A DNA stretch of 63,653 nucleotides, counting the filler. It is 6 parts of 6 records of this genome, joined end to end, with 100 filler letters (N's around TTAATTAATTAA, not from the genome) between each part and the next. Parts side by side here need not be neighbours in the genome. Positions count along the whole stretch, not along the records: positions 47,094 to 57,709 come from SRR31147125_13474; 5 more parts are not named here. One strand, given 5' to 3'. The position numbers and the translations under genes are program-made. Positions 49,557-59,219 of this stretch are shown here, piece by piece. Below the pieces are notes generated by a model, which saw only the letters and a program-made list of their open reading frames with translations, did no database searches and was not told the DNA's origin. Each line of letters opens with the position of its first letter. Positions within the stretch are counted from its first letter, which is position 1.

Positions 49557-50333
49557 ATGGAAAATAATACAAAAGAAATGAAGCCGGTTTTCCAATTAAA
49601 AAATATAGATTTATTTTATGGAGAATTTCAAGCGATAAAAGATATTACTATGGATATAAATTATCATGAAGTCACAGCATTCATCGGACCATCTGGGTGT
49701 GGTAAATCAACATTCTTACGTATATTAAATCGAATGAATGATTTAATTGACATATGTAAGATAACAGGTGATATTATCTATGAAGGTCAAGATGTTTATG
49801 CCAAAGAATTTGATGTGATTGATCTTCGCTCTAAAGTGGGTATGGTTTTTCAAAAACCAAATCCATTTCCAATGAGTATCTATGATAATATTGCATATGG
49901 TCCTAAATGCCAAGGCATTAAAAATAAAAAAGTATTAGATGAAATTGTTGAATCATCACTGAAAAAAGCAGCTTTATGGGATGAAGTTTCAGATCGTCTT
50001 AATAACTCAGCAATGGGACTATCAGGAGGACAACAACAAAGATTATGCATTGCAAGAACGATTGCTATGGAACCTGATGTCATCTTAATGGATGAACCAA
50101 CATCAGCACTTGATCCGATAGCAACTACAAAAATTGAAGAACTTATTGTAGAATTAAAGAAAGAGTATACCATTGTGATTGTGACGCATAACATGCAACA
50201 AGCTGCACGTATATCAGATAAGACTGCGTTCTTCTTATTAGGAGAGCTCATTGAATTTGATGAAACAGCAAAAATGTTTTCTACACCGACTCACCAAAAG
50301 ACAGAAGCATATATTACAGGTAGATTTGGATAA
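49557..50333 (+). CDS. pstB: Phosphate ABC ATPase PstB
   Basis: [37 protein letters not shown]. Confidence 0.98.
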
Positions 50334-50355: not shown

Positions 50356-51012
50356 ATGAGACAAACATTAGAAGAATCAATTCAAATATTAAAAAAAGAT
50401 GTTGCTGATATGGCAGATCATGCATTAAATAATTTAAAAGATGGATTAAAAGCATTTAAAACAGAAGATTTCAATCTTGCAAAAGAAGTTATTAAAAGAG
50501 ACGATATCATCGATTCTTATGAAGAAGATATTGCAAAACAAGCTTTAAAAATCATTTGGAAAGAACAACCACTAGCAAGTGACTTAAGACTTGTCACAGG
50601 TATTTTAAAACTCATTACTGATTTAGAACGTATCGGAGATCATGCCACAGATGTAGCAGAAATGACACTTCATTTAGAACCACAAAGAAACTTGCGTGTA
50701 CTACCGATTACTGAACAAATGGCAGAAGATGTCGAAATGATGGTTTTAGAAAGTATTAAAGCGCTCGTTAACATCAACGTTGTCAAAGCTAAAGAAGTGA
50801 TTGAAAAAGATAAAGATGTCAATAAACTCTTTAAAAAACTTATCAATAAAATGACAAGTGAACTTAAAAATGATAAAATTGATGCAAATGAAGCGATTTA
50901 TGTTTTAATGGTTGCAAAATATTTCGAACGTGTTGGAGACCATGCATGTAACATTGCTGAATGGATTATATTTATGGATCAAGGGACGCATAAAGACACA
51001 CCATTATTTTAG
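50356..51012 (+). CDS. phoU: Phosphate signalling protein PhoU
   Basis: QPLASDLR, DLERIGDH, FERVGDH..NIAE. Confidence 0.96.
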   Translation: MRQTLEESIQILKKDVADMADHALNNLKDGLKAFKTEDFNLAKEVIKRDDIIDSYEEDIAKQALKIIWKEQPLASDLRLVTGILKLITDLERIGDHATDVAEMTLHLEPQRNLRVLPITEQMAEDVEMMVLESIKALVNINVVKAKEVIEKDKDVNKLFKKLINKMTSELKNDKIDANEAIYVLMVAKYFERVGDHACNIAEWIIFMDQGTHKDTPLF

Positions 51013-51022
51013 GAGAGATATC

Positions 51023-51685
51023 ATGCCGTTAGTTTATTTTGTAGAAGATGATCACGCGATTGCAAACATCATCGATAAGACGTTAAAAAATGCTGGGATA
51101 GAAGGCCAGGGATTTCAATCTGGTGAAGCATTTTTAGACATGTTTAGAAAGCAAAGACCAGATATGATATGTTTAGATATCATGTTACCTGACTTTTCTG
51201 GACTAGATTTATTAAAACTCATCCGTAAGATGGATAAAGATGTACCTATAATGATGATTTCCGCATTACAAAGCGAAATGGATAAAGTACAAGCATTAGA
51301 CTTAGGGGCTGATGATTATATGATTAAACCATTTGGTATCTTAGAATTAACTTCTCGTATTCAAGCGAAATTAAGAAAACTATCTGATGATAAAAGATTT
51401 CAAATTAGAAATGTTTTATTGGATGATAAGAAACATGTAGTTTTAATTGATGAAGAAGAAGTGTATTTTACACAAAAAGAATATGATATTTTAAAATTAT
51501 TATTAAAAAATCATATGGAAGTTGTCACAAAAGAACAAATATTTAAATCAGTATGGGATACTGATTTTATTGGTGAAACAAGAACACTTGACATGCATAT
51601 TAAATCACTTAGAAAAAAATTAAGTGATTTCAATGCTGACATATCAATAAAAACTGTTAGAAGTGTTGGATATCACATACAATGA
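51023..51685 (+). CDS. phoP: OmpR-family response regulator (PhoP/PhoB-like)
   Basis: VEDD, LDIMLP, GADDYMIKPF, RTLDMHIKSLRKK; real start MPLVYF. Confidence 0.88.
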   Translation: MPLVYFVEDDHAIANIIDKTLKNAGIEGQGFQSGEAFLDMFRKQRPDMICLDIMLPDFSGLDLLKLIRKMDKDVPIMMISALQSEMDKVQALDLGADDYMIKPFGILELTSRIQAKLRKLSDDKRFQIRNVLLDDKKHVVLIDEEEVYFTQKEYDILKLLLKNHMEVVTKEQIFKSVWDTDFIGETRTLDMHIKSLRKKLSDFNADISIKTVRSVGYHIQ

Positions 51686-53376
51686 AAAGAGCAATTATAA
51701 GAAATAATATGATTCTATTGATTATCGCATTCATATTGTTTTTTTGTGTTGCCTTTTTTTCTGTTTATCGATACGAACGACAAAATCAAGTATCATTTAT
51801 GACATTTATTCTTAATGAAGTTGAAAATGAATATGAAAACTATGATGGTACCATCTATACATTTGTTGCACTTTATGATGAAGATGACAGAAGAATTACT
51901 ATTTTAGATGAAAACGGGATTGTACTTGTTGATTCACATGACTTAAATGTTGGTCAAGATAAAAGTCAAAGACCTGAAATATTAGATTTAGGCACTGTTT
52001 CTTCTAGAACATCAGCAACCATTGAAGTTGAACTACTCTATATTGCAACAACGCTAGATGATGGTAACATCTTAAGAGTATCCATTCCTATGTCATCACA
52101 GATCAATTTGTATTCAACGATTGCTTGGTATTTAGGTATAACAGCTCTTGTAGTGACTATCATATATTATTTTAGTTTAGAGCGTATTAATAGATACGTT
52201 TTATCGCCGCTTAAAACGATTAAACAAGGACTTGTAGCACTTAATCAGGGAAGATATCAAGTGATGCATTTAAATAGTAAATATGGCGATGTCAATGAAT
52301 TGATTCATGAGATGAACTTGATTAATTTAGAGACCTCGACTTATTTAAAACAAGTTGAAGCATACCAAAATGAATTAAGCGCCATACTGAATCAAATGAA
52401 ACAAGGTGTCATGTTATTTGATTTTGAAGGTAACATAACATTTTATAATAAAGATGCACAAAAACTATTTGACCTAGCACTAGAAGATTTAAATCAACCA
52501 TTATATCAAAAAATAAGAGATGTTGCTTTAAAAGAAGCCATTGAAAAAACAAATCTTAATCATATTGACTTAAAATTCGATTTAACCTTAAAAGATAAAA
52601 TATTAGAAGTTAAAACCATACGATTAGATGATACGAAACTATTAAAAAACCAACCAACTGTACTCGCACGATTAAAAGATGTCACCAGTGAAAGACAACT
52701 CGCACAAGTTAAACGTGACTTTTTCTCGCATGCTTCCCATGAATTAAAAAGTCCGCTTACAGCAATCAGTGGTCATGCGGAGTTAATTGAACATGGTTTT
52801 ATTAAAGAAGATCAAGAGATTATCGATGCAGCACAGATGATTCACAATCAAGCGATGCATATGAGCCTACTCGTAGAAGATATGTTGATGTTATCTAGAT
52901 TAGAGCAATTAGAATCAAAAGACTATGAAAAACATGACCTCAATCAGATTCTTCAATCAACAATTGAAATGTTAAAACCTATTGTTCAATCTAAACATAT
53001 GGTTTTAAATGTAGAATCTAAAAAAACTTTAATGATTTGTGATCCAATTGATATGCAAAAACTATTCAAAAATTTGATAGAAAATGCATGTAAATACAGT
53101 AAAGAAAACAAGACGATTAGCGTGGAACTATATCGAAAATCAAGTGATATATATTTCCATATAATTGATCAAGGTTTCGGCATTAGTTTAGAGCATCAAC
53201 AGCGCGTTTTCGAAAGATTTTATCGTGTGGATAAAGGACGTTTAGATGGTGGTACTGGACTGGGTTTAGCAATCGTGAAACATATCGTTATTAAGTATCA
53301 TGGAAAGATAGAATTAGATTCTCAAATTGGAAAAGGAACTGAAATATTAATTCGATTAAAAGATTTTAAATCGTAA
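51682..53376 (+). CDS. phoR: Sensor histidine kinase (PhoR-like)
   Basis: SHELKSPLT, NLIENACKY, FERFYRVDK, GGTGLGLAIVKH, PAS domain. Confidence 0.9.
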   Translation: MKRAIIRNNMILLIIAFILFFCVAFFSVYRYERQNQVSFMTFILNEVENEYENYDGTIYTFVALYDEDDRRITILDENGIVLVDSHDLNVGQDKSQRPEILDLGTVSSRTSATIEVELLYIATTLDDGNILRVSIPMSSQINLYSTIAWYLGITALVVTIIYYFSLERINRYVLSPLKTIKQGLVALNQGRYQVMHLNSKYGDVNELIHEMNLINLETSTYLKQVEAYQNELSAILNQMKQGVMLFDFEGNITFYNKDAQKLFDLALEDLNQPLYQKIRDVALKEAIEKTNLNHIDLKFDLTLKDKILEVKTIRLDDTKLLKNQPTVLARLKDVTSERQLAQVKRDFFSHASHELKSPLTAISGHAELIEHGFIKEDQEIIDAAQMIHNQAMHMSLLVEDMLMLSRLEQLESKDYEKHDLNQILQSTIEMLKPIVQSKHMVLNVESKKTLMICDPIDMQKLFKNLIENACKYSKENKTISVELYRKSSDIYFHIIDQGFGISLEHQQRVFERFYRVDKGRLDGGTGLGLAIVKHIVIKYHGKIELDSQIGKGTEILIRLKDFKS

Positions 53377-53394
53377 ATTTTGTTAAAAATACTA

Positions 53395-53423
53395 TTGCAT
53401 ATTTGTTAAAAATTCCTTATAAT
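53395..53423 (+). promoter_or_regulatory. Sigma-70/SigA promoter of the nrd operon
   Basis: TTGCAT-17 bp-TATAAT. Confidence 0.85.
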
Positions 53424-53429
53424 AAAATC

Positions 53430-53558
53430 ACAACAAAGATTAAACGAGAAAAGCTTCTAAGGGGATTTTAGAATATGTTTTAGTAAGGGACAACCACGTT
53501 CTTTTTTAATCATATCCAAAATCACTTTAAAGCATACTATTGTATGCTTTATTTTTTT
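53430..53558 (+). ncRNA. Candidate cis-regulatory leader RNA (attenuator/riboswitch) of the nrd operon
   Basis: ~150-nt 5' UTR with alternative stems, ending in an intrinsic terminator 22 nt before the nrdI ATG. Confidence 0.55.
53528..53558 (+). terminator. Intrinsic terminator in the nrd leader
   Basis: TAAAGCATAC-TATT-GTATGCTTTA followed by T7. Confidence 0.85.
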
Positions 53559-53580
53559 ATCATATAGAGGAGATGATGAT

Positions 53581-53967
53581 ATGGTTGTCGTTTATGACAG
53601 TCTGACAGGACAGGCCAAACGGTTTGCTGAAAAACTGAATATGTCATGTATGGATATCAATCATTTTAGCTTAGATGATCATGAAGATGTCTTATTAGTA
53701 ACCAGGACGTTTAATTTTGGAGAAGTACCTGAACCAACAGCAAATTTTTTAAGAGAACATGCTGAAAAAGTAAAAGGGGTTTGTGTTTCAGGCAATAGAA
53801 ACTGGGGTAAGAACTATGGTGCAGCCGGTGATAAAATCGCTGCTTCATATGCAATACCACTCATATTAAAGTTTGAAGCATCAGGTTTTGACCGTGATGT
53901 TCATATAGTAAAACAATGGATAAAAAATCAAGAAAGTAAAGGGGACGAAAGTCATGTCAATGTTTAA
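53581..53967 (+). CDS. nrdI: Class Ib RNR flavodoxin NrdI
   Basis: YDSLTG..KRF, T.TFNFGEVP, SGNRNWG.NYG.AG, KFEASG. Confidence 0.95.
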   Translation: MVVVYDSLTGQAKRFAEKLNMSCMDINHFSLDDHEDVLLVTRTFNFGEVPEPTANFLREHAEKVKGVCVSGNRNWGKNYGAAGDKIAASYAIPLILKFEASGFDRDVHIVKQWIKNQESKGDESHVNV

Positions 53968-55903
53968 AACTACAGAAGAATTAATTAACAAATTTATCGG
54001 TAATGAAGAGGATAAAAGATCGGATTATTTAAAAAGAGAAAATAGTAATTTCGTATATTCATTACCACTACTAAGAAAAAATATCTCTAACAAAGCTGAA
54101 GAAGAATATTTAATGAAGCATATTTTTCCTAGAAAACTTGTTGATTTATATGAAGATGGTGTTGTATACATTCATGACAAACAGCTTAGTTCATATTGCC
54201 AATCAGTAAGCTGTAAGGATATTGCAACAAAAGGTATTCCTTCAATTGCTAAAAATATGTTGGAATCAGGTCCTGCTTCATCTCTACCTACACTTATTCG
54301 TCATTTTAGTAATATCGTTACTTTAATGAGTCAACAAGTATCAGGAGCTGTGATGTTATCACAAATGACAACGATTTTAGCTTCATATTTATATCAAGAA
54401 GAACTAGATCGTCAATTTTATACAGAACATACATTAACAAAATTAATGTATCAATTAATTTATGAATTAAACTTACCACTACGCTCAGGTTCAGAATCAG
54501 CATTTTCTAATTGTACATTAGAATTTGGTAAACCTTCAGAAGAAATTAAAGAAGAGTATGTCATTATTGGTGGTGAAGGGATGAACTATACATATAGTGA
54601 TATTCCAGGAGAATACTTTGACCGTATTAACGTTGCATTTATTAATGCGATGGCAAAAGGGACAAAAAAAGGTATTCCATTAACTTTCCCGCTGATTACT
54701 GTACAAATTGATGATAATTTTAACTATGATAATGATGTGTTTAGACATTTATTGACTAAAATGTATCAATGGGGTGGTGTCTATTTTGAAAACTTTAGAA
54801 CACGACCATTTACAGATCACTATTATACAAATTTAAATCCATATATTAAACCAAAAGATCCAAGTGTTTCACGTAGTTTATGCTGTCGATTAAACATTGA
54901 TTTATCAGTTTTATCAAGAGCTGGAGGCGGTATATTTGGATCATCAGTGGGTAATGTTGGTGCAATACAAGTATTAAATTTAAATATGAATCGTATGCTG
55001 ATTGAATTTGGACATGATCAAAAATTACTTAAGATGAAAATTAGAGAGTATTTAGAAGTCATGGAAGAAGGACATATGGCTAAACGTTCTTGGGTTGAAA
55101 ATCATAAAGAACTCTATCCGACATTCTTTGCATTTAATCATGATTTAAGAAATTATTTCAATGTCTTTGCAGTGACTGGTATGCATGAAGGTTTAGTCAA
55201 TGTTGGTTTTAGTGATGGAATTAATGATAAAGATGGTAAATTATATGCACATGAATTAATGCAATACATCACAGATGTCATTAATGAATTTATTGTTAGA
55301 GATCATGTAGCATGTGGTATTGAATATGCACCTGCAGAAAATGCTGGCATTAAACTTGCAAGAAGTGATGTTAAATGGGCTAAAAAACATGGTAAAGAAA
55401 TATTTGTTCAAGGTAAAGACGATGAAGTGTTCTTAACATCAGGATGTATGTTGCCATTTAGTGAAGAAGATTTCACAAAACAAATTGAAAATGCAGCAGA
55501 GTTCCAAGGTTATGCAACATCAGGATCAATTCTTCATCATTTTATTGAAGATAAAATTGAACCTGAAGTATTGTCTAATTACTTACAAAACTTATTTAAA
55601 AAACCAATTAACTATATAACACTGACACCAACAATTACATCATGTCAATCATGTGGTCAACGTATTGTTGCTAAAGATGCGAAAACTATTGAAACATGTC
55701 CTGTGTGTGGATCAACTGATATTGCGACATTCTCAAGAGTTATAGGTTATGTTCGTATGATTGCAAGACAAAACATATCTGTTGATAAAGAAGGATTCTA
55801 TAGAGGTAAATACAATTTCTGGAGTAAAGCAAGAAGACTTGATTGGGCACAAAGAAGAAGATTCCAAGATGAAGATGCTACAGCAGCACCTACAAAAAAA
55901 TAA
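53954..55903 (+). CDS. nrdD: Class III (anaerobic) ribonucleoside-triphosphate reductase lacking an ATP cone
   Basis: ENSN, YIHD..YC, TFPLIT, SLCCRL, EYAPAE, CQSC..CPVC zinc site, glycyl-radical motif SRVIGY. Confidence 0.93.
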   Translation: MSMFKTTEELINKFIGNEEDKRSDYLKRENSNFVYSLPLLRKNISNKAEEEYLMKHIFPRKLVDLYEDGVVYIHDKQLSSYCQSVSCKDIATKGIPSIAKNMLESGPASSLPTLIRHFSNIVTLMSQQVSGAVMLSQMTTILASYLYQEELDRQFYTEHTLTKLMYQLIYELNLPLRSGSESAFSNCTLEFGKPSEEIKEEYVIIGGEGMNYTYSDIPGEYFDRINVAFINAMAKGTKKGIPLTFPLITVQIDDNFNYDNDVFRHLLTKMYQWGGVYFENFRTRPFTDHYYTNLNPYIKPKDPSVSRSLCCRLNIDLSVLSRAGGGIFGSSVGNVGAIQVLNLNMNRMLIEFGHDQKLLKMKIREYLEVMEEGHMAKRSWVENHKELYPTFFAFNHDLRNYFNVFAVTGMHEGLVNVGFSDGINDKDGKLYAHELMQYITDVINEFIVRDHVACGIEYAPAENAGIKLARSDVKWAKKHGKEIFVQGKDDEVFLTSGCMLPFSEEDFTKQIENAAEFQGYATSGSILHHFIEDKIEPEVLSNYLQNLFKKPINYITLTPTITSCQSCGQRIVAKDAKTIETCPVCGSTDIATFSRVIGYVRMIARQNISVDKEGFYRGKYNFWSKARRLDWAQRRRFQDEDATAAPTKK

Positions 55904-55910
55904 ACGATTC

Positions 55911-55998
55911 TAGGAAGTGCATATCAAATGATATGCACTTCCTATAGAAACTTAATGATAAAATCCTTTAAAGTCAGCTTTAAAGGACTTTATTTTTT
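55911..55998 (+). terminator. Tandem hairpins between nrdD and nrdG
   Basis: Perfect 16-bp IR 55911-55944; 10-bp IR 55964-55987 followed by CTTTATTTTTT. Confidence 0.75.
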
Positions 55999-56020
55999 CA
56001 TCAAGACAAGGGGTATAGAC

Positions 56021-56698
56021 ATGATTCACTATTATAATAAATTAATATTATCACTATCTGAAATTGAGCATCACCCATCGCTTTTAGTTCATGGGTTAAC
56101 GGGATGTATGTTTCATTGCTTTAAATGCTTTAATTATGATGAATTAGTGATAAAAAAACATGAAGATTACTATTTAATCGATGATGTGATTACATATATT
56201 GAAAGACAAGAAGATCTATTTGAATATATTTTGTTTAGTGGTGGAGAGTATATGTTAGCACCACTAGATGACCTTATTTATGATTTAAGCAAAATTAGAA
56301 AAAATACAGATAAGAAAATTATTATTTACACAACGGGGTTTGAACTTAAAAAAATGATCAGATTAACTGAACTAGGTCTTGTTGATGGGTATCATATTGA
56401 CATGAAATTACCTTATCATTTACTTACTGAGGATGACTTTGAACTCATCAAGCTTACTATGGGTATAACAGTCCAAGATTTAAGTATCGTTAATCGCCTT
56501 ATAGAGGCAATAAAGTTTGTTGTAAAAAATGATCAAGGCTATAGTCAAATTCGAAGTGTAAAATATCCTTTTTTAGACCAAAGCGCATTTGATGAGTGCA
56601 AATCATTTATCATGAGCTTAAATGATTTGTATAATAAGAACATACCGTATGAAGCACATACATTTATTGATGCTGATGGGGATAAGGAAGAGGGATGA
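56021..56698 (+). CDS. nrdG: Radical-SAM activase of class III RNR
   Basis: CMFHCFKC (CxxxCxxC), FSGGE, IDMK; real start MIHYY; directly follows nrdD. Confidence 0.85.
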   Translation: MIHYYNKLILSLSEIEHHPSLLVHGLTGCMFHCFKCFNYDELVIKKHEDYYLIDDVITYIERQEDLFEYILFSGGEYMLAPLDDLIYDLSKIRKNTDKKIIIYTTGFELKKMIRLTELGLVDGYHIDMKLPYHLLTEDDFELIKLTMGITVQDLSIVNRLIEAIKFVVKNDQGYSQIRSVKYPFLDQSAFDECKSFIMSLNDLYNKNIPYEAHTFIDADGDKEEG

Positions 56699-56701
56699 TT
56701 T

Positions 56702-57709
56702 ATGGATAGAAATACAATACCAGAGTGGATCGTTTTAAACAATCAAATCGTTGATGAAAATGGGAATATCAAAGATTTAGGTAAAGACAAAGAAGCGGTT
56801 CATTCATATTTTTTAAATGAGATTAATAAAAAAACACAGTTTTTTCATTCATTAGAGGAAAAACTGCATTATTTAATAAAAAATGATTATTATGAAGAAG
56901 TTTTTTTATCAAAATACAGCCAAGAACAAATTGCTGAAATTTATAATTATGCTTATGCGCAAAAATTTAGATTTCCAACATATATGGGTGCATTTAAATT
57001 TTATAATGATTATGCGCTCAAATCGCGTGATAAAAAAGTCTTTTTAGAGCGCTATGAAGATAGACTTGCAGTTAATGCACTTTATCATGCAGATGGTGAT
57101 TTTGAGATGGCAAAACGTTTGATTAAATCACTCATGGCCCAAGATTTCACTCCAGCGACACCAACGTTACTAAATACGGGGAAGAAAAAACGAGGAGAAT
57201 TTGTCTCATGTTTCTTACTTGAAGGTGGCGATTCATTAAATGATATTTCTAGAATTTCTGAATTTTCTATGCAACTATCTAAAATTGGTGGTGGGGTTGC
57301 CATTAACTTAACGAACCTTCGTGCTAAAGGTGAAACGATTAAAGAAATTCCAAATGTTTCTAAAGGTGTTGTAGGGGTTGCAAAACTACTTGATAATAAT
57401 TTTAGATATGCTGATCAAATGGGTCAACGTACAGGCGCTGGAGCTGTTTATTTAAATGTATTCCATGCTGATATTGAGGATTTCTTAAACATTAAAAAAT
57501 TAAATGCAGATGATGATATCCGAGTTAAAACACTATCGATGGGTGTGGTTATGCCTGATAAGATGATTGAACTTGCCAGAGAAAATAAAGATATGTATGT
57601 ATTTTATCCACATACAGTCTTTAAAGAATATGGTAAAAACTTTGCCGATATCGCGATTGATATGGAAAAATGGTATGATGTGTTAGTTGAAAATCCAAGT
57701 GTTAGAAAA
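56702..57709 (+). CDS. nrdE: Class Ib RNR alpha subunit, 3' truncated
   Basis: LNNQI, DKEAV..YF, FHSLEEKL.YL, YMGAFKFY..YALK, PATPT.LN.G, VSCFLL, QMGQR.GAGAVYL. Confidence 0.95.
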
Positions 57710-57809
57710 NNNNNNNNNNNNNNNNNNNNNNNNNNNNNNNNNNNNNNNNNNNNTTAATTAATTAANNNNNNNNNNNNNNNNNNNNNNNNNNNNNNNNNNN
57801 NNNNNNNNN
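57710..57809. other. Artificial contig linker 5
   Basis: Same 100-nt spacer. Confidence 0.99.
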
Positions 57810-57854
57810 GGTGATGATGGTGATGATGATGATGATGATATGCGGGAACCACAG

Positions 57855-59219
57855 GTTACCAGGACACCGGGTGGCTGGCACAAAGGACCTGGAGGAATTC
57901 GTCTTTGTCAGGCGTGCTACAAGTACTACAAGATGAATGGACGAATGCCGACGACGGCGATCGCAACAACAACTACTACTACTATAACTACTACAACAAC
58001 TACTACAACAGCAACAACAACAATGCCGTCGGGTATGGCCATGGACCCCTCTTCCCCTTCCTCTGCTCCCCTCTCCAAGATCACAACTCCACCTTTTATG
58101 GATGTTCCCTCTTCTCCAGAAGAATCGATTGGAGGAGGAGGCAGTGGCGGTGTCACAGGTCGGTTTGGCGAGTGGGTTGGTGCCCCTCTGGGTCGCTTCG
58201 ATGGTTGTGTTTCCTATGGTGCAGTCGTACTAGCGGACACGGGCAGCACGATCAACGTGGGAGACCATGTCCTACTTTACGAGGGGTGTGACACCGGCCT
58301 TCCTTTTGTGGCTCGTGTCGTGGCTCTTTATGAAGCCGAAACGGGTGAAAGGATGCTTCACGGCCAATGGTACTTTCGCCCTGGGGAAACATCCATGGGC
58401 CAAGTGGCCTCAACGGATCCACGCGAGATCTTCTACTCCGAGACATACGACAGCAACCCTATTGCCTGTATCCTTCGACACGCTTACGTTTTGTTCCACG
58501 ATGATGTGATCAACTGGATCGAATTCCGTGCAGCGGATGACCATTTTTTCTACCGGCGCACGTACAATCCCCACACCTCCACCTTTCTCCCTCTTCGTGA
58601 GCGGGCGACACCAAGCAAGACGTCAAAGAACCGATTCCGCCGTTGTTCCGTCATTCCTGTCACACCTCTGCCCATCCTTCCTTCTTCCTCCGCCGCCTTC
58701 TGTTCTTCTTCGGTCGTAGTATCGACACCTCGCCCCGAGACACGTTTTTCAACACCCCCTCCTGTCCTCTCTACCTCAGTTCCCTCCTCCTCCTTCTCCG
58801 CCTCTTCCGCCACGCATCGAACGCCTCGTTGTGTTAGCTCCTTTGACATCGACGCGCTTGTTTGTTTCCCTGACAAGGATTTCACCGTCACCATCCCTGT
58901 GCGGAAACCTGTGCACATCCATACACCCAAGTGGAAACAAGTAAGCAACACGCGGAGCACAGCACGATTGAACAGAGAGCCCGAATCAAGCGAGGAGGAT
59001 ATCACGGATCAGTCCATTGAGGCACGGCATACTCCCTATGAATTGGCCGAGAAGAAACGTGTAGAGACACTTTTGCGTGCTGTGGAACGTGGACAAGGGC
59101 GTGGTCTTCGCAAGCATCGAGACAATAGTGACAAGATCGACGCAGACGTTCCTCCTACCTCCCAGCATCGTCCTAAATCCTCAACACGTGAACAAACGAT
59201 GCTGGCCGCCAAGGGCTGA
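57855..59219 (+). CDS. Eukaryotic chromatin protein exon: partial GATA-type Zn finger, BAH domain, PEHE-like motif
   Basis: TPGGWHKGP..LCQAC; VGDHVLL..FVARV..QWYFRP.ET..REIFYS..DSNP..CI (BAH); TPKW..EDITD....RH..YE..EK.R; acceptor CACAG at 57850-57854. Confidence 0.75.
   Translation, partial: VTRTPGGWHKGPGGIRLCQACYKYYKMNGRMPTTAIATTTTTTITTTTTTTTATTTMPSGMAMDPSSPSSAPLSKITTPPFMDVPSSPEESIGGGGSGGVTGRFGEWVGAPLGRFDGCVSYGAVVLADTGSTINVGDHVLLYEGCDTGLPFVARVVALYEAETGERMLHGQWYFRPGETSMGQVASTDPREIFYSETYDSNPIACILRHAYVLFHDDVINWIEFRAADDHFFYRRTYNPHTSTFLPLRERATPSKTSKNRFRRCSVIPVTPLPILPSSSAAFCSSSVVVSTPRPETRFSTPPPVLSTSVPSSSFSASSATHRTPRCVSSFDIDALVCFPDKDFTVTIPVRKPVHIHTPKWKQVSNTRSTARLNREPESSEEDITDQSIEARHTPYELAEKKRVETLLRAVERGQGRGLRKHRDNSDKIDADVPPTSQHRPKSSTREQTMLAAKG

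Follow-up and report, generated by a model that had tools for sequence, protein, structure and literature searches.

The window analysed here, a stretch of DNA of 63,653 nucleotides (nt), contains an operon of ribonucleotide reductase (RNR) genes preceded by a gene for a PhoR-like histidine kinase. Between the two lies a leader of ~130 nt up to its terminator, with its own promoter ~150 nt before nrdI (Table 1). In our analyses we mainly focused on this leader, for which an earlier note, made from the letters of the window alone, had proposed an orphan riboswitch or attenuator. The parts of the leader are conserved in related genomes, the two halves of its long imperfect hairpin co-evolve, and the base of this hairpin overlaps the intrinsic terminator. 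On balance, the leader is probably a cis-acting transcription attenuator, composed of a terminator, an antiterminator and a sensor block, of an operon holding all RNR genes. Judged by sequence comparison, it is a new, narrowly distributed candidate cis-regulatory RNA motif of the terminator/antiterminator kind, absent from Rfam and from the literature searched. The orphan leader of the earlier note, with its competing pairings and its conservation in relatives, was retained; the specific switch model (a three-way junction, Fold A, and an antiterminator segment TATGTTTTA) was abandoned.

Table 1. Features of the RNR leader, the operon and the neighboring genes (positions refer to the whole window).
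Feature	Position	Strand	Description and basis
pstB	49557-50333		Pfam ABC_tran; upstream of phoU and the kinase gene
phoU	50356-51012		Pfam PhoU; upstream of the kinase gene
OmpR-type regulator	50912-51685		Pfam Response_reg and Trans_reg_C; upstream of the kinase gene
PhoR-like histidine kinase	51682-53376	+	Pfam HisKA and HATPase_c; conserved upstream neighbor
Putative promoter	53395-53423	+	TTGCAT (53395-53400), 17-nt spacer, TATAAT (53418-53423); read from the sequence
Leader 5' end (ACAAC...)	53430-53452	+	Predicted start ~7 nt past the -10 box
Proposed sensor/antiterminator 5' strand	53453-53477	+	GCTT, TAAGG, GGGGAT (53461-53466), spacer, ATG at 53475
Long imperfect hairpin (Fold B)	53458-53529	+	Minimum free energy (MFE) fold; extended to 53453-53533 as the putative antiterminator
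Predicted mini open reading frame (ORF)	53475-53483	+	ATG TTT TAG, 9 nt past GGGGA
Apical hairpin	53485-53507	+	AAGGGAC / GTTCTTT; MFE folds; contains T-tract TTCTTTTTT (53499-53507)
Intrinsic terminator	53528-53558	+	10-bp stem, 4-nt loop, T7; terminator search. Order: TAAAGCATAC (53528-53537), loop TATT, GTATGCTTTA (53542-53551), T7 (53552-53558)
nrdI Shine-Dalgarno (SD) and start	53566-53583	+	AGAGGAG (53566-53572); ATG at 53581
RNR operon	53581-57709	+	nrdI-nrdD-nrdG-nrdE; Pfam
nrdI	53581-53967	+	Pfam Flavodoxin_NdrI, 6e-26
nrdD, without ATP cone	53954-55903	+	Pfam
nrdG, radical-SAM activase	55928-56698	+	Pfam
nrdE	from 56702, truncated at the contig end (57709)	+	Pfam; N-terminal part only

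The promoter, already described as a consensus promoter in the earlier note, was confirmed by direct reading; a promoter scan missed it, since TTGCAT agrees with only 3/6 positions of the -35 consensus of the scan. The terminator, also claimed before, was recovered by the terminator search. Its stem holds 3 G-C pairs among 10 bp, the loop is short and a U-run follows directly; terminator-like sites numbered 2, compared with 0.4 expected in shuffles. The distance from the T-run to the nrdI ATG is 22 nt, which leaves no room for a promoter of nrdI downstream of the hairpin, a case that the earlier note had named as counting against its proposal.

Relatives were found by an NrdD search (one genome per species), which gave 20 loci. 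Ten of these share the order kinase gene, ~200-nt gap, nrdI and nrdD; they come from Acholeplasmataceae metagenome-assembled genomes (MAGs) and one Mycoplasmatota record that carries a strain name, so that there may be a cultured relative. We scanned 307 genomes of the order with a pattern of the terminator, either as an exact match or with 1-2 mismatches. It matched exactly in 10 genomes and, with mismatches, also in the leaders L028 (before an ATP-cone nrdD, without nrdI) and L034 (before nrdI, in a higher-G+C genome). The other mismatched matches with a returned locus, which excludes 9 places in 7 genomes that had none, were ordinary terminators or coding sequence. In total, the leader is present in the window and in 12/307 genomes of the order, i.e., in 13 species representing about five deep lineages, and the kinase gene lies upstream of it in L001-L010, L028 and L034. 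The exact form of the terminator occurs once per genome in 5/5 complete genomes. A covariance model of the leader applied to 151 genomes found the known leaders only, together with two false gene-end terminators (L077 and L078). A scan of metagenomes for GGGGAT, a gap and the terminator gave 17 matches, of which three were real and all duplicates (L061=L028, L064=L010 and L067=L006); the other 14 were due to chance, mostly inside coding sequence. The same architecture of promoter, GGGGAU, T-tract and terminator thus precedes RNR genes in 12 further genomes, and its occurrence in L028 before a different RNR gene supports an attenuator.

The promoter (TTGNNN-17-TATAAT) is found at the same place in 13/13 leaders, and the relatives carry ACA(G/A)C after the -10 box. 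In 13/13 leaders the GGGGAU block is invariant, at a distance of 59-63 nt upstream of the terminator. The small apical hairpin, the stem of which becomes GCAG/CTGC in L001, L006 and L009, is followed by a T-tract, mostly GTTCTTTT, and 11/13 leaders contain TTNTTT in the interval from the block to the terminator. Outside the terminator, conservation is limited to GGGGAU and the T-tract. The MFE folds place a hairpin at or near the 5' end of most, not all, relatives, and the 5'-terminal hairpin of several relatives is missing from the leader of the window. The terminator stem is identical in the 13 leaders save three one-sided changes that preserve pairing, its loop measures 2-5 nt, and the U-run is interrupted in L028 and L034; the L028 terminator hairpin alone has -10.0 kcal/mol. 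Because the length of the centre varies, the conserved palindrome fits an RNA hairpin rather than an operator for a dimer, and a DNA-operator reading of it was rejected. The 5' and 3' strands differ only modestly in conservation (0.78 vs. 0.69 identity).

All four pairings listed by the earlier note exist in the window, as seen on folding. Fold B is the MFE structure (-32.6 kcal/mol, z -3.24 for 53425-53580), and for 53445-53558 z reaches -4.45, with 0/200 shuffles as stable. Folding of 12 leaders against shuffles gave z values of -1.5 to -5.0, at or below -2.4 in 10/12. When the leaders were folded with the terminator 3' arm removed, which corresponds to the state before the synthesis of that arm, every one of them formed one long imperfect hairpin that runs from the GGGGAU block to the spacer. 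RNAalifold on a MAFFT alignment detected the terminator only, because sequence alignment leaves the covarying, diverged strands out of register; alignment-free swap tests were therefore used. The 5' and 3' halves of the hairpin were exchanged between species among 11 representatives (L008 and L009 were omitted as near-copies). The native combinations had a mean of -23.9 kcal/mol, the permuted ones -18.0 kcal/mol (standard deviation 1.2), and the native value was reached in 0/50,000 permutations; when the test was limited to duplexes, p was 0.0012. Fold B is conserved, and its halves co-evolve. With the leaders anchored on GGGG, the first three G are paired in 11-12/12 distinct leaders (truncated MFE), the G-A that follows is unpaired in 6-8/12, and the next four positions are paired in 10-12/12, with A-U, U-A and G-C all occurring.

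The two other elements of the earlier switch model proved specific to the window and were rejected. The closing helix of Fold A, presented as part of a three-way junction, has -10.0 kcal/mol and 12/13 pairs in the window; in the 12 relatives its values are only -1.0 to -6.9 kcal/mol, and native combinations showed no advantage over permuted ones (p=0.74). Likewise, the antiterminator pairing of TATGTTTTA with TAAAGCATA comprises 9 pairs (-7.0 kcal/mol) in the window only; elsewhere 2-5 positions are paired (-0.7 to -4.6 kcal/mol).

The pairing that competes with the terminator lies instead at the base of Fold B. Immediately 5' of GGGG, the segment RUGCUU nearly repeats the terminator 3' arm (in the window, GCTT at 53453-53456 is a copy of it), and 3-7 nt of the terminator 5' arm (AAGCAY) pair with the segment upstream of GGGG in 11/13 truncated MFE folds; the block-to-arm duplex has -4.0 to -8.5 kcal/mol in 12/13 leaders. 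In the window, GCTT and TAAGG pair with CTTTA-AAGC (53525-53533), which takes in the first 5 nt of the 9-nt arm AAAGCATAC (53529-53537). Because the copy of the 3' arm pairs with the terminator 5' arm in 11/13 leaders, the base of Fold B is interpreted as the antiterminator, and the mutual exclusion between the pairings and the terminator, as claimed earlier, holds for it. The mark of an attenuator, a conserved segment that competes for the terminator 5' arm, is thus found in 11/13 leaders, and the half-swap test agrees with it. The double pairing duty of the 5' arm would explain why the terminator stem is frozen and its loop variable. At full length, the terminator state is favored by only 1-6.6 kcal/mol where the overlap exists, and the MFE or centroid structure retains the antiterminator in L010, L001 and L034.

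GGGGAU is the only invariant block that pairing leaves unexplained, because its partner varies (C or U). An extra copy of the block, upstream of the main one, is present in two lineages, in L005, L008 and L007, where it forms a clean hairpin of 8 bp, the GGGA loop of which is closed by G.U. Covariation was counted over five hairpins, i.e., the three extra copies and the main copies of the window and L003. Six of the 8 pairs change on both sides and 90% of the cells are paired; the covariation score of 0.725 compares with 0.287 in shuffles (0/500 as high), and slid controls were far lower. The stem covaries around the GGGA loop, and therefore the loop-presenting hairpin is under selection at the RNA level.

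In the mechanism that we propose, transcription would start at the promoter of the leader. The GGGGAU block would zip with the spacer transcribed ~50 nt later, forming the long hairpin, and in the last turn of this hairpin RUGCUU would pair with AAGCAY of the terminator 5' arm. With the base of the hairpin closed, no terminator could form and the polymerase would enter nrdI, which is presumably the default path. Occupancy of GGGGAU before its partner is synthesized would leave the 5' arm free and lead to termination (the OFF state). Candidate occupants are (i) a 30S subunit or ribosome, (ii) a specific RNA-binding protein, and (iii) a ligand-stabilized local hairpin that presents GGGA or GGGG in its loop. 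RNA polymerase may pause at the T-tract TTCTTTTTT, which follows the apical hairpin, and such a pause could time the decision. TTNTTT is a NusG-dependent pause motif of Bacillus subtilis. As a term, TTNTTT occurs in the portions consulted of PMC9963633 and PMC11602163.

This arrangement resembles the known attenuators of Firmicutes, namely the PyrR-controlled pyr leaders and the leaders with an upstream ORF (uORF) of ABCF resistance genes such as vmlR (described in the sections consulted of PMC9226507). A sensor site, an antiterminator and a terminator compete, the sensor site overlaps the 5' strand of the antiterminator, and a T-rich pause element precedes the decision point. It differs from them in that no PyrR-type binding loop was recognized and no cognate protein identified, that the length and the sequence of the uORF are not conserved, and that the genes controlled encode RNR.

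Several observations weigh against a regulated attenuator. In L002 and L004, the long hairpin pairs with a spacer look-alike of the 5' arm and stops one base before the terminator, so that 0 nt of the terminator arm are sequestered in the truncated MFE (terminator formation adds -8.2 kcal/mol in these two). The local GGGGAU hairpin of the main copies is weak (0 to -6.2 kcal/mol), with native flanks no better than swapped ones (p=0.15); a local GGGG-loop hairpin as a general anti-antiterminator is thus unsupported for the main copies. Few conserved unpaired nt are left for a ligand pocket. Given the narrow distribution and the relatedness of the sequences, only about five lineages count as independent, and the invariance of the terminator stem yields no covariation for the terminator itself. 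Finally, no copies of the GGGGAU hairpin were found before other genes in the 5 complete genomes, with matches inspected at E<1. The underlying model search (E≤10) gave 34 matches, of which 3 were the nrd-leader hairpins of the training set and 31 lay elsewhere; the 8 of these 31 that were inspected (all E<1) were coding sequence or ordinary ribosome-binding sites. In the absence of further copies there is no regulon that would point to a trans-acting protein.

A reading without any regulated switch takes up part of these observations. According to it, the terminator ends read-through from the pst-pho genes and sets a fixed, leaky level of nrd expression, or the ~130-nt product is a small RNA (sRNA), and the 5' hairpin and the SD-like block only stabilize the RNA. 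A 5'-terminal hairpin combined with an SD-like element is a classic RNA stabilizer in Firmicutes. By direct reading and by the terminator search, there is no terminator between the phoR stop (53376) and the promoter of the leader, sRNA genes likewise consist of a promoter and a downstream terminator, and the lack of overlap in L002 and L004 fits a plain terminator. However, nrdI has no other promoter within the short distance that follows the T-run, so all RNR genes depend on read-through, and 11/13 leaders have retained a copy of the 3' arm in a position to capture the 5' arm, for which a plain terminator has no need. We regard this reading as rather unlikely.

If the leader is a regulated attenuator, the same architecture could be operated by a metabolite. 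In such a riboswitch, an RNR-linked small molecule (a deoxynucleoside, a deoxynucleoside triphosphate (dNTP) or a cofactor signal) would bind the GGGGAU hairpin or the internal loop of the long hairpin and so tip the equilibrium of terminator and antiterminator. The invariance of GGGGAU in spite of its varying partner, with G-A unpaired in about half or more of the distinct leaders, is consistent with this, as is the extra hairpin, in which the stem covaries and the loop is conserved. Moreover, the RNRs of the window lack an ATP cone and NrdR is missing, so that product feedback would have to act elsewhere. A precedent exists in the 2'-deoxyguanosine (2'-dG) riboswitches of Mesoplasma florum, which are OFF switches before RNR genes according to the parts consulted of PMC3159443 and PMC5435998. 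They share with our leader an RNA leader with an intrinsic terminator before RNR genes, a wall-less, Firmicute-derived lineage without the usual protein control, and the expected OFF logic. They differ from it in the three-way junction and in the purine-riboswitch match in Rfam, both of which our leader lacks; what is conserved at its core is a G-rich block of 6 nt within a long hairpin, with ligand sensing as a candidate function only. Against a riboswitch, very few nt are conserved outside helices, there is no conserved junction or pseudoknot (the three-way junction of Fold A having failed), most main copies form only a weak local hairpin, all of GGGGAU lies in Watson-Crick pairs of the long hairpin in L028 and L034, and no known riboswitch family matches. 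A metabolite riboswitch in this architecture is therefore a tentative candidate of low probability, and the same applies to the corresponding claim that the leader represents a very small new riboswitch class which, by its GGGGAU-capped hairpin or internal loop, senses a deoxynucleotide, a deoxynucleoside or another direct read-out of RNR output and shuts off the only RNR operon of cells that lack both NrdR and ATP-cone activity sites on their reductases.

Alternatively, attenuation could be mediated by a ribosome or a protein, with GGGGAU being a real ribosome-binding site with its start codon, or a protein site shared with the nrdD ribosome-binding site; its occupancy would prevent the antiterminator. 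The block AAGGGGAU pairs with the 3' end of 16S rRNA, as read from these genomes, in an SD-like manner (-5.5 to -8.2 kcal/mol), compared with -6.6 to -17.8 kcal/mol for the real nrd ribosome-binding sites. An ATG lies 7-10 nt past GGGGA in 8/13 leaders, across three deep lineages, and the flanks of the block are AU-rich and poorly structured. GGGGA also serves as the ribosome-binding site of nrdD in 7/11 close loci and in L028, and of unrelated genes (L092 and L104). However, the ORF that follows counts 2, 3, 3, 13, 11, 33, 33, 8, 26, 3 or 34 codons and is absent in L006 and L009, and its peptide is not conserved. Its stop falls before, inside or beyond the terminator depending on the species, which predicts opposite effects in different species, and it is hard to see which RNR-relevant signal a ribosome would report. 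As to proteins, the gene of CsrA (PF02599) is present in 0/5 complete motif-bearing genomes and no candidate protein was identified; CsrA and NrdR were rejected as effectors, as their genes are absent (for NrdR, 0/5 and 1/307 in the order, see below). Ribosome- or protein-mediated attenuation thus likewise remains improbable, at the level of the metabolite riboswitch.

In three lineages an ORF starting just past GGGGAU is open through the terminator (L005:3520-3630, L008, L034:1448-1552 and L028:1453-1555). Its end overlaps the nrdI start as TAATG in L005 and L008 and as ATGA in L034, and the ORF of L028 runs in frame into nrdD. Such long ORFs may be due to chance or may reflect translational coupling; they do not agree with the ORFs of only 2-3 codons in the window, in L003, in L010 and at the first ATG of L028.

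Comparison with known RNA families gave no match. Rfam 15 had 0 matches at gathering thresholds in the whole window, only chance-level matches at E≤10 on 53350-53620, and nothing at E≤5 on the leaders of 11 relatives. The cobalamin riboswitch (RF00174, cut-off 31.5 bits) and the purine and 2'-dG riboswitch families were not among the matches in either search, and the three-way junction is not conserved, in agreement with the earlier note, which had seen neither a cobalamin nor a 2'-dG consensus. The best of the chance-level matches, to the csRNA family (RF02379), had 20.4 bits (E 1.8) against a threshold of 57; its alignment depends on the Fold A helix, which is specific to the window, and passes over the central segment of the family, and it was dismissed. 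In the literature, open-access papers and preprints, in the portions that the search returned, contained no description of such a leader (subscription-only papers were outside the search).

The orthologous cone-less nrdD is directly preceded by a cobalamin riboswitch in other genomes, at L011:3728-3900, L015:3662-3855 and L079:3190-3359 (- strand), with RF00174 scores of 82-115 bits. The hosts of these riboswitches are an Acholeplasma MAG (L011), Vulcanibacillus (L015) and the genome G292. The nrdD type of the window is present in only 14/307 genomes of the order, and its two leaderless carriers, G292 and L011 (most likely the same as G295), have a cobalamin riboswitch upstream instead. The gene is therefore commonly under leader-RNA control. 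These riboswitches share with our leader the gene, the position and a terminator that follows (L011, L015 and L079). Our leader differs in giving no match to sequence or model, in being about 100 nt shorter and in belonging to hosts without a B12-dependent RNR. Descent of the leader from such a riboswitch, as a relic or variant, is suggested by the shared nrdD type and, by eye, by the 5' part of these riboswitches (GGTGC..., ...AGGGAAT), which recalls GTGCTTAAGGGGAT. However, local alignment of the three cobalamin leaders with 11 of our leaders gave z<2.5 in 31/33 pairs, with the best matches in the T-run/ribosome-binding-site region, RF00174 does not match the leader at either threshold, and the 5 complete motif-bearing genomes contain neither NrdJ nor any cobalamin riboswitch. 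Such descent is extremely improbable and close to refuted.

RNR sets the supply of dNTPs and is under tight control in nearly all organisms, for the most part through NrdR and ATP-cone allostery. According to Pfam, neither RNR of the window has an ATP cone, and the reductases of the relatives sharing the arrangement of nrdI and cone-less nrdD lack it as well. The NrdR model (TIGR00244) scored above its cut-off in 0/5 complete motif-bearing genomes and in only 1/307 genomes of the order, compared with 9/14 reference genomes in the positive control. The 51 weaker TIGR00244 matches among the 307 genomes are ATP-cone domains, mostly within ~700-aa frames such as RNR large subunits. In 5/5 complete motif-bearing genomes, the leader precedes both the only NRDD-family gene and the only class I large-subunit gene of the genome. 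There is thus physiological room for control by the leader, because NrdR, the cobalamin riboswitch and NrdJ are absent and all RNR genes lie behind it. The leader has in common with NrdR and its boxes the role of a dedicated control of nrd operons. NrdR differs in being a protein that acts on DNA, the gene of which is absent here, and the palindrome of the leader has a variable centre.

Probably, then, the leader decides whether the RNR genes of a small group of wall-less bacteria are read. If it is a regulated attenuator, these organisms would control their synthesis of DNA precursors mainly at this leader, which would also be a compact and experimentally tractable case, with about 130 nt and one locus per genome. 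A metabolite as the effector would mean a new riboswitch class for deoxynucleotide metabolism, and, were this a deoxynucleotide riboswitch, RNA would replace the near-universal protein feedback on dNTP supply; a ribosome or protein as the effector would mean a new attenuation system for RNR. The narrow distribution limits the general reach of the finding.

In the relatives, nrdF follows nrdE; the operon of L002 reads nrdI-nrdD-nrdG-nrdE-nrdF. The spacing between nrdG and nrdE is 3 nt in the window, compared with a gap of 176 nt in L002 (L002:6715-6890).

Other leaders and promoter elements were noted at nrd genes of more distant genomes. In Bacilli (L013, L014, L016 and L017), tandem AT-rich palindromes, which we take to resemble NrdR boxes, are located at the promoters of the orthologous nrdD, ~100-300 nt upstream, and those of L013 and L016 precede a small thioredoxin-like ORF. 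Three MAG contigs labeled Bacillales/Staphylococcaceae (L018:1330-1860, L019:920-1442 and L020:3020-3540), whose nrdD is 83-85% identical to that of the window, have in common another conserved leader, which is ~230 nt long, is preceded by a TATAAT box and gave no Rfam match at gathering thresholds. This may be a second, undescribed nrd leader.

Directly 5' of the -35 box (53377-53394), the window has TTTTGTT; at the same place TTTACA is kept in L002-L005, L007, L008 and L010, and a repeated TTTCAT in L001, L006 and L009. As they adjoin the phoP-phoR genes, these boxes could be response-regulator sites. The rRNA operon leaders of G001, G002 and G004 (L080-L085) contain a hairpin followed by a boxA-like (G/A)GTCTTTGAAAAC (also given as (G/A)GTCTTTGAAAACTGAATGATGATGAG). 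In L001 and L009, the apical hairpin of the nrd leader is directly followed by AGTCTTTTC, and the leader of the window has GTTCTTTTTT; the likeness to the boxA-like element amounts to 6-7 shared T-rich letters and is indistinguishable from chance.

The bacterial contig that carries the leader (~31% G+C) ends inside nrdE at 57709 and is followed by an N-run from 57710, with the linker TTAATTAATTAA between two N runs (57710-57809), which shows that the window consists of concatenated contigs. The next piece has ~53% G+C, and its first long ORF (57840-59219) encodes a protein of eukaryote type with BAH and PEHE domains.

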